64,000 nucleotides of DNA, taken from NCBI GenBank assembly GCA_001785985.1, contig MFVE01000005.1, positions 112,533 through 176,532 on the forward strand, in the 5' to 3' direction. The notes beneath the pieces were generated by a model. That model was not told where the DNA came from, did not search any database, and saw only the letters and a program-made list of their open reading frames with translations. The number at the start of each line of letters is the position of its first letter. Within the stretch, counting starts at the first letter, position 1. This DNA comes from Candidatus Nomurabacteria bacterium RIFCSPLOWO2_01_FULL_42_17. GTDB lineage: Bacteria > Patescibacteriota > Minisyncoccia > Phycocordibacterales > UBA9973. Positions 52,227-54,446 of this stretch are shown here, piece by piece. The position numbers were made by a program, and so were the translations under genes.

Positions 52227-54446
52227 TCACTTCTTCTCCAAACGTATTTTTAGTACTCCAATTTCATCTCGCAATATCGCCGCTGTTTCGAAATCTAATT
52301 CTTTGACAGCTTTGTTCATTTCTTTTTCTTTTATTTTTATTATTTTTTCATAAACTACTCTGTTGCGTTCTTCATCAGATAAATTTTTGTCATACTTTTT
52401 ACCACCTACGTCAAGACTACGGCGGGCCGCAGTAAACAATTCAACATCAAGCGCTAATTCTGCGTTGACTGTCTTTGCATGTTCGCTCTCCACCTCTTGC
52501 GTAATATCTTCTATCTTTTTCATTATCGTCTTTGGGGTAATACCATGCTTTTTGTTGTAAGCAATCTGTATATTTCGCCGACGGGCAGTTTCTCCTAAGG
52601 CTTTTTCCATAGCATCCGTCATAATATCAGCATAGAGAATCACTTTGCCCTCGCTATTTCGCGCCGCGCGACCAATAGTCTGAATCAGTGATGTTTCGGA
52701 GCGTAAAAATCCGGCTTTGTCTGCATCTAGAATTCCAATCAAGGCCACTTCTGGTAAATCGAGCCCTTCACGCAAGAGGTTCACCCCCACCAAGACATCA
52801 AAGTCTCCTTTGCGAAACTGTGTAAGGATTTTAATTCGCTCCATTGTTTTAATATCGCTATGTAAATATTCTGCTTTGATTTTTTTGTCCTTTAGATAAA
52901 CAGAGAGGTCTTCCGCCATTTTCTTAGTCAACGTCGTAGCAAGCACGCGAAAACCTTTGGCAATTGTTTTTTCTGTTTCTTTTATAAAATCCTGAATCTG
53001 ACCGGGATATTTATTTTCATTCGGCAAATGACCAGTCTTTTGTTCAGGTCCTCGGTTCTCCGGGGCCCCTCCCCCCGGCCAGACCGTTCCAAAAGTCTGT
53101 TCACTTGCCGAACTAGCACTGACCGGCCGTACAATTGTCTCTGGGTCCACCAGCCCCGTCGGACGGATAATTTGCTCCACAATCTGCTCACTTTGGCTGC
53201 GCTCTTGTTCGCTCGGAGTAGCACTCGTATAAACCACTTGCCCAATACGCTCCTCGAATTCCTCATACTTGAGGGGCCTATTGTCTTTGGCTGATGGCAA
53301 ACGAAAGCCATATTCTACAAGGGTGTTTTTACGTGAAGCATCTCCTGCATACATACCCTGAAGTTGAGGTAGAGTAACATGTGATTCATCGATAATGGTC
53401 AAAAAACCTGGGCCTCCTTCGCTCCTGCTTCGGCGGGCCGAAGGAAAATAAGATAATAACGTCTCTGGCGGCTCACCTTCGCTTTTACCAGATAAATGTC
53501 GTGAATAATTTTCAATGCCATTACAATAGCCGACCTCGCGGATCATCGCTAGATCATAATTAGTGCGTCGCTTGATACGCTCAGCTTCTAAAAGTTTTCC
53601 CTCTTTGTTAAATTTTTTTAGCTGGGCTTCCAGTTCTTTTTTAATATTCACTAACGCTCTTTTCTTTTTTACATCCTCGGTAATAAAATGTTTTGCCGGA
53701 AAAATAAAAATGCCTGCCCGTCCTTTGGCGGGTTTTACTTCTTTAATAATTTTAGAAGAAATGGGATCAACTTTTATTATTTTTGCTATTTTTCCATCCG
53801 AGAATTCTATCTGATACATAATAGATTCAGACACTGGCATAAATTCCACTCGCGAGCCGAGAGATCGGAAACTGCCGGGGGTTAAGTCTGCATTAGTACG
53901 CTCAAAATGAATTGCAATAAGAGATTTCATTAAAGTCATGCGGTCCATCCTCTCCCCGACTTCCAACTTTAGATTAACTTTCTCATATTCTTCCGGAGAA
54001 CCTAATCCATAAATACAAGACACAGAAGCGACGATGATAACGTCCGGCCTAGTGAGTAGGGCTTGCGTGGAAGCATGACGAAGCATGTCTATTTCTTTAT
54101 TTATAGAAGCGTCTTTTTCAATATAAGTATCTGAGGCGGGCATATATGCCTCTGGCTGGTAATAATCATAATAAGAAACAAAATAATGTACCGCGGAGTC
54201 TGGAAAAAACAATCTGAACTCTTGAGCCAGTTGCGCGGCAAGAGTTTTGTTGTGCGCGATGACGAGTGTCGGCTTGTTGTACTGGGCAATTACATTCGCC
54301 ATCGTAAAAGTCTTGCCCGTGCCGGTGGCGCCGAGTAATGTCTGTTTTTTCATACCGCTCGTGAGACCCTCCACCAATTTTGAAATAGCTATCGGCTGAT
54401 CTCCGGCTGGCTGAAATGGATTGTGTAGCTTAAAGATAGCTTTCAT
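52227..54446 (-). CDS. uvrB: Excinuclease ABC subunit B with two in-frame GC-rich insertions
   Basis: Helicase motifs (GATGTGKTFTMA; DESH; ...), a beta-hairpin region and a C-terminal UvrB/UvrC interaction helix (EERNRVVYEKIIKIKEKEMNKAVKELDFETAAILRDEI). Confidence 0.95.
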   Translation of the reverse strand: MKAIFKLHNPFQPAGDQPIAISKLVEGLTSGMKKQTLLGATGTGKTFTMANVIAQYNKPTLVIAHNKTLAAQLAQEFRLFFPDSAVHYFVSYYDYYQPEAYMPASDTYIEKDASINKEIDMLRHASTQALLTRPDVIIVASVSCIYGLGSPEEYEKVNLKLEVGERMDRMTLMKSLIAIHFERTNADLTPGSFRSLGSRVEFMPVSESIMYQIEFSDGKIAKIIKVDPISSKIIKEVKPAKGRAGIFIFPAKHFITEDVKKKRALVNIKKELEAQLKKFNKEGKLLEAERIKRRTNYDLAMIREVGYCNGIENYSRHLSGKSEGEPPETLLSYFPSARRSRSEGGPGFLTIIDESHVTLPQLQGMYAGDASRKNTLVEYGFRLPSAKDNRPLKYEEFEERIGQVVYTSATPSEQERSQSEQIVEQIIRPTGLVDPETIVRPVSASSASEQTFGTVWPGGGAPENRGPEQKTGHLPNENKYPGQIQDFIKETEKTIAKGFRVLATTLTKKMAEDLSVYLKDKKIKAEYLHSDIKTMERIKILTQFRKGDFDVLVGVNLLREGLDLPEVALIGILDADKAGFLRSETSLIQTIGRAARNSEGKVILYADIMTDAMEKALGETARRRNIQIAYNKKHGITPKTIMKKIEDITQEVESEHAKTVNAELALDVELFTAARRSLDVGGKKYDKNLSDEERNRVVYEKIIKIKEKEMNKAVKELDFETAAILRDEIGVLKIRLEKK
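53020..53135. repeat. Roughly 105-bp GC-rich in-frame insertion in uvrB with a palindromic core CGGTTCTCCGGGG-ccctcc-CCCCGGCCAGACCG (53053-53086)
   Basis: It encodes SASSASEQTFGTVWPGGGAPENRGPEQKTGHLPNENKYPG between the conserved RPV and RVLATTLTK segments, about 35 aa longer than E. coli UvrB there. Confidence 0.55.
53407..53451. repeat. Family-B GC-rich palindromic element in frame in uvrB
   Basis: CCTGGGCCTCCTTCGCTCCTGCTTCGGCGGGCCGAAGGAAAATAA encodes SARRSRSEGGPG just upstream of the DESH helicase motif. It shares CCTCCTTCGCT..GCTTCGGCGGGCC.AAGGAAAA with the uvrC copy. Confidence 0.7.

Follow-up and report, generated by a model that had tools for sequence, protein, structure and literature searches.

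The palindromic elements of Rickettsia (RPEs), which Ogata et al. are said to have described in 2000, are reportedly inserted in-frame, in either orientation, into essential genes within a reduced genome. Families of repetitive extragenic palindromes (REPs) have stems of 5-13 bp, loops of 2-20 nt and an unpaired GTAG or CGTC tag, and intragenic REPs have been recorded, often in genes of replication and repair (uvrA, uvrB, uvrD, polA, dnaE and recBCD), in Opitutus, Thauera and Rickettsia, those of Rickettsia corresponding to RPE-4 and RPE-6 (Di Nocera et al. 2013, PMC3733652). The present analysis concerned a short GC-rich segment of the uvrB gene in a 64,000-nt stretch of Candidatus Nomurabacteria bacterium RIFCSPLOWO2_01_FULL_42_17 (contig MFVE01000005.1, positions 112,533 to 176,532 of the forward strand), the whole of which is hereafter called the window. 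The segment is probably one copy of a very small non-autonomous hairpin repeat, similar to REPs and RPEs, which survives in-frame in tolerant loops of proteins. Since an architecture of the REP type and the behaviour inside genes, uvr genes included, have already been described, the kind of element is known and the family is new.

An earlier note made from the sequence alone had placed a 45-mer (CCTGGGCCTCCTTCGCTCCTGCTTCGGCGGGCCGAAGGAAAATAA, 53407-53451) in uvrB just before the DESH motif, and this was borne out, as the 45-mer matched without any mismatch and occurred only once in the window when up to three mismatches were allowed. The GC content was approximately 40% in the window and up to 58% in the uvrB segment. 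On the minus strand the segment was translated as SARRSRSEGGPG, directly preceding FLTIIDESH, with the insert in the context S-A-R-R-S-R-S-E-G-G-P-G (an example of a junction peptide is SEGGPGFLTIIDESH). The segment had also been held to be additional to other UvrB proteins, and solved UvrB structures indeed showed a 10-residue gap at the insert (YFPK, the gap, then DFLLIIDESH). Approximately half of 36 Nomurabacteria proteins, which were 79-87% identical, had only KTG or KSG at the site between SYFP and FLTIIDESH and were thus empty there, and the other half had unrelated inserts of 2 to approximately 40 residues. S332, Y333, F334 and P335 were invariant across the 36 relatives. This site of UvrB is an insertion hot spot.

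The boundaries of the element were determined by comparison with the uvrB-uvrA-uvrC loci of relatives (L125, L126, L127 and L129). The empty uvrB site of L125 read TCT TAT TTT CCT TCG ACT GGT TTT and the window read TCT TAT TTT CCT TCG (GCC CGC CGA AGC AGG AGC GAA GGA GGC) CCA GGT TTT, which is an exact gain of 27 nt with no duplication of the flanks. The nine inserted codons encode ARRSRSEGG, from A337 to G345. By this empty site the element is confined to 53412-53438, and the extent of 45 nt first given to it was too wide. Since the right CGAAGGAAAATAA is the reverse complement of the host S-Y-F-P-S codons and the left CCTGG is host Pro-Gly, the palindromes described in the note are products of the junction between element and host. 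The inner CTTCGGC-gg-GCCGAAG is present in the sequence as claimed, but it is not a feature of the family and is absent from the consensus, in which the flank is ARGC; like the CCTTCG...CGAAGG palindrome, it was formed where the element meets host sequence. Hairpins of the latter type did not hold as a signature, as there were two in the window compared to 0.04 expected but the second (11496-11515) had no match to the profile described below. None of 35 UvrB relatives in the protein alignment had an insert of the ARRSRSEGG type, and the 53 kb of uvr loci taken from relatives had no copy of the hairpin family, which makes both copies, in uvrB and in uvrC, lineage-specific gains. The same UvrB site of relative P0009 had CCCCGCC...GGGCGGGCAGGCC, with the stem and tail of the family, a different loop and the opposite orientation. 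The identical UvrB protein was present on three contigs.

A nhmmer profile was made of 62 distinct copies taken from other organisms only and was then scanned over the window. It produced exactly four matches with an E-value below 0.5, in uvrC (49484-49510, E 7e-5), murB (9794-9823, minus orientation, E 3e-4), uvrB (53413-53438, E 6.5e-4) and thyA (5441-5462, E 0.015). The multi-copy family that the earlier note had proposed for uvrB and uvrC was thus confirmed, the related core that it had seen in thyA proved to be a diverged member, and further copies came to light, one on the opposite strand in murB and others outside this organism. The core GCTTCGGCGGG also stood up, with four occurrences at one mismatch or fewer compared to 0.49 expected, a number that none of 100 shuffles reached. 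Repeat finding, which also linked uvrC and thyA, matched the uvrB segment to murB in inverted orientation over 23 of 26 nt. The copies in the window and the features around the uvrB site are as in Table 1. The possible decayed copy in the C-terminal region of uvrB was not reported by the profile even at E-values up to 100. Generic CCNCC...GGNGG hairpins (19 in the window compared to 8.8 ± 3.9 expected) were uninformative.

All four copies in the window were intragenic singletons in housekeeping genes, two in sense and two in antisense orientation. Each was an in-frame, stop-free insertion of 27 nt and nine codons, rich in Ala, Gly, Ser and Arg, at a position gapped in relatives or in solved homologues. 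For uvrC, the gain of exactly 27 nt followed GTT TAT TTT TTC CTT in comparison with L125, L126 and L127, which were all the relatives with a recovered uvrC start. The uvrC loop is 1 nt shorter than the uvrB loop, so that the 5' halves are read in different frames (A-R-R-S-R in uvrB and G-P-P-K-R in uvrC) and converge on S-E-G-G. The two orientations and several reading frames show that the similarity is at the DNA level. Nine codons were added by each copy despite the differing loop lengths, which argues for translation and frame selection and against excision from the RNA; the length of 3n and the lack of stop codons are consistent with a translated peptide. The insert sites are probably exposed protein loops of variable length, in UvrB the loop before the strand that carries helicase motif II. 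The uvrB and murB copies share a rare CCT triplet at the loop centre, found in none of 111 other copies among the matches listed from the pattern scan below, and this is consistent with spread inside the genome to which the window belongs.

Table 1. Positions of the hairpin element copies and of the features around the uvrB site in the 64-kb window.
Feature	Position	Strand	Sequence	Product	Basis and remarks
Element proper in uvrB	53412..53438	+	GCCTCCTTCGCTCCTGCTTCGGCGGGC, 27 nt		Antisense to gene; 27-nt gain compared to L125 empty site
uvrC copy	49483..49509	+	GCCTCCTTCGCTACGCTTCGGCGGGCC, 27 nt	GPPKRSEGG	Antisense to gene; profile E 7e-5
murB copy	9797..9823	-	CCCTCCGACGCTCCTGCTTTGGCGGGC	PSDAPALAG	Sense orientation; nine-residue gap in solved MurB
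thyA copy, diverged	5437..5462	+	CCCGCCTACGCCGAGGCTTCGGCGGG	PAYAEASAG	Sense orientation, perfect 6-bp stem; nine-residue gap in solved ThyA
Possible decayed copy, uvrB C-terminal region	52394..52426	+	ACCACCTACGTCAAGACTACGGCGGGCC	AARRSLDVGG	Repeat family D3, 67% identity; without statistical support
uvrB, host gene	52227..54446	-		739 aa	Pfam ResIII, UvrB_inter, Helicase_C, UvrB, UVR; PDB matches E 1e-221
Host uvrB codons	53439..53451	-	TCT TAT TTT CCT TCG	S-Y-F-P-S	Outside element; also at L125 empty site
DESH helicase motif II of UvrB	53379..53390	-	GAT GAA TCA CAT	DESH	Seven codons downstream of insert; translation and solved-UvrB alignment

Other inserts were also observed in the host genes. 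In uvrB, at least two further GC-rich insertions were located at 52995-53120 and 53700-53726, and both sites were variable hot spots in relatives. One of these encodes P-A-K-G-R-A-G (CCCGCCAAAGGACGGGCAGGC), which was common to five of 36 relatives, and the other codes for a segment of approximately 37 residues (SSASEQTFGTVWPGGGAPENRGPEQKTGHLPNENK), to which inserts in P0002, P0014, P0019 and P0061 are related. Columns 370-420 and 540-600 of the UvrB alignment showed another insert family (RRRSHSILEGKVLSGRSEYSSEH and variants) at two sites, both of which were occupied in P0041 and P0109, and these sequences suggest that there may be further mobile in-frame families in Nomurabacteria. In murB, two further GC-rich inserts were found at 9990-10090 and 10458-10507; one is palindromic (CCCGACGCTTTCGGTCGGGACCCCGACCCTTTGGGGCGTCGGGG) and spans a gap of approximately 13 residues in solved MurB, and the other encodes PARNATPVRNDSRSDSGRHSVAGG. 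The PARNAT..SVAGG motif recurs in the UvrB protein of relative P0019, likewise as an insert.

The consensus of the family was C-CCTCC-TWCGCT-RAA-GCTTCGG-CGGGC-ARGC. The unit of approximately 26-31 nt comprises a GC stem of 6 bp (C-CCKCC / GGCGG-G), a conserved loop of 14 nt (TWCGCTRAAGCTTC; TWCGCT-RAA-GCTTC) and a C-ARGC tail, and in the consensus fold positions 0-5 pair with positions 20-25 around the loop. In diverged copies, five of the six stem pairs showed compensatory changes from C-G to U-A, and in place of the usual U.C mismatch there was G-C or U-A. Covariation over 29 sequences showed that seven of ten pairs were changed on both sides, 0 of 500 shuffles reached the observed values, and slid registers scored far below the true register of the stem. 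The hairpin of the uvrB copy was stronger (z -1.8 to -2.2), but this was dependent on the host flanks. In uvrB and uvrC, positions of the tail are host codons, which hints, from these two sites only, that ARGC may be a target preference rather than element sequence. The consensus CCCTCCTTCGCTAAAGCTTCGGCGGGCAAGC had no match to an Rfam family, and when the whole window and the locus were scanned with Rfam, only five tRNAs and one sub-threshold chance match were returned.

For other organisms, the pattern CCTCCKWCGCTN{2,4}GCTTYGGCGGGC was scanned over a species-representative genome collection of 596 Gb. More than 120 loci were matched, which is a lower bound, compared to fewer than approximately 10 matches expected by chance according to our own estimate. 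By record titles, the matches listed were made up of 71 loci in Bacteroidota, 23 in lineages of the Candidate Phyla Radiation (CPR), 11 in Alpha- and Gammaproteobacteria, 6 in Omnitrophota, 5 in Desulfobacterota including the isolate Geomesophilobacter sediminis, 1 each in Planctomycetota and Chloroflexota, and 2 that were unclassified. The Bacteroidota hosts include the isolates Chryseolinea serpens DSM 24574 and three Niastella species, among them Niastella yeongjuensis and Niastella soli, and one Bacteroidota record with a copy is a closed Saprospiraceae chromosome of 7 Mb. Among the matches listed, positions left free by the pattern were still conserved (C at position 0 in 103 of 111 copies, R-A-A at the loop centre and A-R-G-C in the tail) and the flanks of the copies were mutually unrelated. 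Within the same matches, an open frame of 150 aa or more enclosed 47 of 129 copies (23 forward and 24 reverse), and the most frequent frames of copies in long open reading frames (ORFs) were PSFAKASAGK and LPAEALAKEG. The CPR hosts of in-frame copies were common housekeeping proteins which, as named from translations and not from database matches, included RadA, ATP synthase gamma, CCA-adding enzyme, HsdM, ABC-F and a tRNA-binding protein. The fetched loci, of 8 kb each, had approximately one extra copy per 25 kb.

Clustered copies were direct tandems or partial tandems with periods of 26, 30, 37, 43, 50 and approximately 103 nt. Locus L074 (1288-1402) had an array with a 30-nt period, in-frame in an ORF of 877 aa with SPAEALAKEG decapeptide repeats, and L007 (6007-6440) had a 103-nt repeat with one element copy per unit. 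The partial internal duplications of L114 at 810-910 (CACACCTTCGCTAAAGCAAGC) point to slippage or template switching as their probable origin. A longer relative in L007 (5975-6020) had the same ends and a middle part larger by 16 nt (CCGCCTTCGCTCCTCACTGCGTTCGGAGCTATGGCGGGC), which suggests that there may be a wider superfamily with a common stem and tail. At eight Bacteroidota loci (L004, L008, L015, L028, L035, L044, L105 and L108) the element was often observed inside genome-specific short tandem repeats, with surrounding units of 7-9 nt such as GGTTAGA, ATCAATCG, CCTCAACT and AATTCCT. The pattern was found in only three IMG/VR viral contigs, and the consensus had no BLAST match in collections of phages and plasmids, so that viruses or plasmids are not obvious carriers of the element. 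For the CCT subfamily of the window, a metagenome scan produced a single match, in-frame in a tRNA-binding protein gene, which has little bearing on proliferation within one lineage. The literature, searched by sequence, peptide and topic, gave no description of the hairpin family.

Comparison with described repeats showed that the element is similar to REPs in being a GC-rich imperfect stem-loop of 20-40 nt with a short unpaired tag by the stem and in belonging to a multi-copy family, and it may also be dispersed in many copies within one genome. Some REP copies are also intragenic and presumed neutral in loops, as the element here likewise lies inside genes. However, its tag reads C-ARGC, or GCYT-G on the opposite strand, and not GTAG or CGTC; these two were present in the element only on the reverse strand of the TA and GA variants, within the loop. 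Copies were singletons or direct tandems, whereas REPs are mainly extragenic and frequently form inverted dimers (REPINs); all four copies in the window were intragenic, and no REP-associated tyrosine transposase (RAYT) was found among the 60 ORFs of the window. With RPEs the element has in common that selfish palindromic DNA lies in-frame in both orientations at tolerant positions, where it would add a peptide, but RPE-1 is approximately 100-150 nt long and restricted to Rickettsia, whereas the element has 27 nt, is found across phyla and probably differs in sequence. The hairpin ends of IS200/IS605 elements and their non-autonomous derivatives, the palindrome-associated transposable elements (PATEs), which HUH/Y1 transposases move, may be similar, as they combine an imperfect hairpin with a short conserved motif beside it, insert without target duplication and are acted on in trans. 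The element has a hairpin, a conserved tail of 4-5 nt and no target duplication, and action in trans is proposed here for it. IS200/IS605 ends and PATEs differ from it in that the element has no linked transposase gene, has a single hairpin instead of distinct left and right ends, and has no demonstrated strand or orientation bias (23 compared to 24 among the matches listed). [quoted passage not shown] They are likewise small non-autonomous repeats able to land in genes, but the insertion of the element was a clean gain of 27 nt without duplicated flanks.

A small imperfect hairpin with a conserved loop and tail, no target duplication, random orientation and no linked gene fits a non-autonomous element that is copied in trans, in the way proposed for REPs/REPINs and for IS200/IS605 ends. 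New copies lay at sites without common flanking homology and without target-site duplication, and copying would act on the folded single strand. A hairpin-recognising enzyme would work in trans, by analogy with HUH/Y1 transposases such as RAYT and the IS200/IS605 TnpA, and it is from this analogy that we infer a mobilising enzyme. The surviving copies would then be filtered by selection for in-frame, tolerable insertions, and the inserted peptide would be neutral for UvrB function. It is possible, though doubtful, that this hairpin of approximately 30 nt with a near-invariant loop is a pan-bacterial miniature mobile element of CPR, Bacteroidota, Omnitrophota, Proteobacteria, Desulfobacterota, Planctomycetota and Chloroflexota.

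Several results weigh against a mobile hairpin repeat of this type. A Pfam scan of the 60 window ORFs detected no Y1/HUH transposase (the same scan showed a truncated reverse transcriptase and a LAGLIDADG endonuclease), and no gene recurred beside the element when 2,718 ORFs of 121 loci among the matches listed were clustered, the maximum being four loci per cluster. The stability of the consensus hairpin did not exceed that of shuffled sequence (z about 0), and the stem of the commonest variant contains a U.C mismatch. The covariation sample was small (29 sequences) and partly picked by similarity to the consensus, so that it lends support without being conclusive. A REP family is usually confined to one species or genus, whereas the core of the element is nearly invariant across phyla. 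Finally, the AlphaFold2 model of UvrB, made with the 36-sequence alignment, had a mean predicted local distance difference test (pLDDT) score of 50.8, which was too poor to show a surface loop; the placing of the insert in such a loop comes from aligning the sequence to solved structures.

Other explanations of the uvrB segment were also weighed. A polymerase or reverse transcriptase could have copied the 27-mer at breaks, with an abundant RNA or DNA as template, and the precise gain without target duplication, the tandem and partial tandem periods of 26, 30, 37, 43 and 103 nt, which suggest slippage or template switching, and a reverse transcriptase (RT)-like ORF at a distance of 2 kb from uvrC would all agree with such a templated insertion. 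It is nevertheless unlikely, as this ORF has no N-terminal motifs and looks decayed, the Rfam scans of window and locus gave no candidate template RNA, and the covariation of the stem points to recognition of a fold and not of a linear template. The same stem, kept through compensatory changes that include one U-G pair, and the loop sequence conserved across phyla could instead belong to a functional RNA motif, a hairpin in the transcript which pauses or recruits ribosomes, stabilises the mRNA or makes an internal start. AAGGAGG, which resembles a Shine-Dalgarno (SD) sequence, is present in the orientation of uvrB and uvrC and the anti-SD-like CCUCCUU in the other orientation, and the reverse complement contains GAAGGAGG, located in uvrB at 9 nt upstream of a TTG codon. 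However, orientation to the host ORF was random (23 compared to 24 among the matches listed, and two compared to two in the window), so that opposite strands are transcribed at different sites. The lack of an Rfam match and a folding energy no better than that of shuffles also speak against a motif of this type, and the many Bacteroidota copies are hard to reconcile with a role based on SD pairing, of which Bacteroidota are generally reported to make little use. Such a function was considered improbable.

Selection on the protein was given even less weight. In that case the nine residues would be adaptive in UvrB and the likeness to uvrC, murB and thyA would be a convergence of low-complexity coding or codon bias, and it is true that every copy in the window is in-frame within a protein and that two of the four are in nucleotide-excision-repair genes, which echoes the reported excess of REPs in repair genes. 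However, the frames and strands in which this DNA is read differ between copies, 35 close relatives lack the insert and have unrelated inserts or none at the site, the copies are detected by a nucleotide profile made from other phyla, and many copies elsewhere are outside long ORFs. An adaptive protein insertion is thus largely refuted and very improbable. Chance similarity or an artefact of assembly or sequencing might be suspected for a short element whose matching records are mostly metagenome-assembled genomes. This was refuted by the number of pattern matches (more than 120 compared to fewer than approximately 10 expected in 596 Gb by our own estimate), by the copies in the cultured isolates Chryseolinea serpens, three Niastella species and Geomesophilobacter and in the closed 7-Mb chromosome, by the identical UvrB on three contigs and by copies that are diverged yet in-frame, and it is practically out of the question. 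A non-autonomous hairpin repeat resembling REPs and RPEs is the preferred explanation of the uvrB segment.

Other repeats and genes were noticed in the window. The RT-like ORF belongs to a region on the minus strand at 45552-46290 (ORF 45552-46109; RVT_1, with DIRKFFASIDH and YADD) between ruvA and rpsT, the latter named from its translation, and a small hairpin (CCCCGTTTTAGCGGGG) lies directly upstream of it. As it has neither the N-terminal motif nor a proper start codon, it is probably a decayed retroelement. The LAGLIDADG homing-endonuclease ORF (34286-35338) ends in or abuts an unusually long tRNA call of 88 nt (35301-35388), and its endonuclease may thus be associated with an intron or a tRNA. 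At 1311-1679, adjoining rpsG and rpsL, lies a gene for a homologue of the 23S rRNA-intervening-sequence protein (PF05635), with no rRNA gene of the window nearby. GC-rich near-perfect palindromes in polA (60425-60474) and in a pseudouridine synthase gene (14776-14811), e.g., CCCGTTAGAGGCAGAGGGTCGCTGCGAGCCCTCGCGGCCTCTAACGGG, are families separate from the uvrB element. An AT-rich direct repeat of 50-91 nt was present in four copies (19328-19377, 22198-22296, 25401-25499 and 29009-29107) with a spacing of 2.9-3.6 kb. Its sequence is TTGTAATGATAATAT..GAATTTAA..ATATGTTATACT, followed by ATGCCYGARGGAGATAAAA, and its appearance is that of a promoter or leader module common to several genes downstream.

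Selfish hairpin DNA is present in genomes of CPR bacteria (Patescibacteria), which are usually regarded as streamlined and repeat-poor, and the location of all four window copies inside essential genes fits a genome with almost no intergenic space. Hairpin insertions help to explain the many short, lineage-specific, GC-rich inserts in CPR proteins, and such inserts should be treated as inserted DNA by annotators and structure predictors. For a REP-like repeat it is unusual that the 26-nt core is nearly identical in at least seven named phyla; if this reflects a common mobiliser, it would give a handle for finding the enzyme by phylogenetic profiling. The element may also serve as a marker of recent insertion events. 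Should the doubtful pan-bacterial distribution as one mobile element be true, it would mean either that the element spread between phyla together with a mobiliser as yet unrecognised or that a widely conserved host enzyme copies it, and new protein loops would steadily arise from it in CPR genomes.

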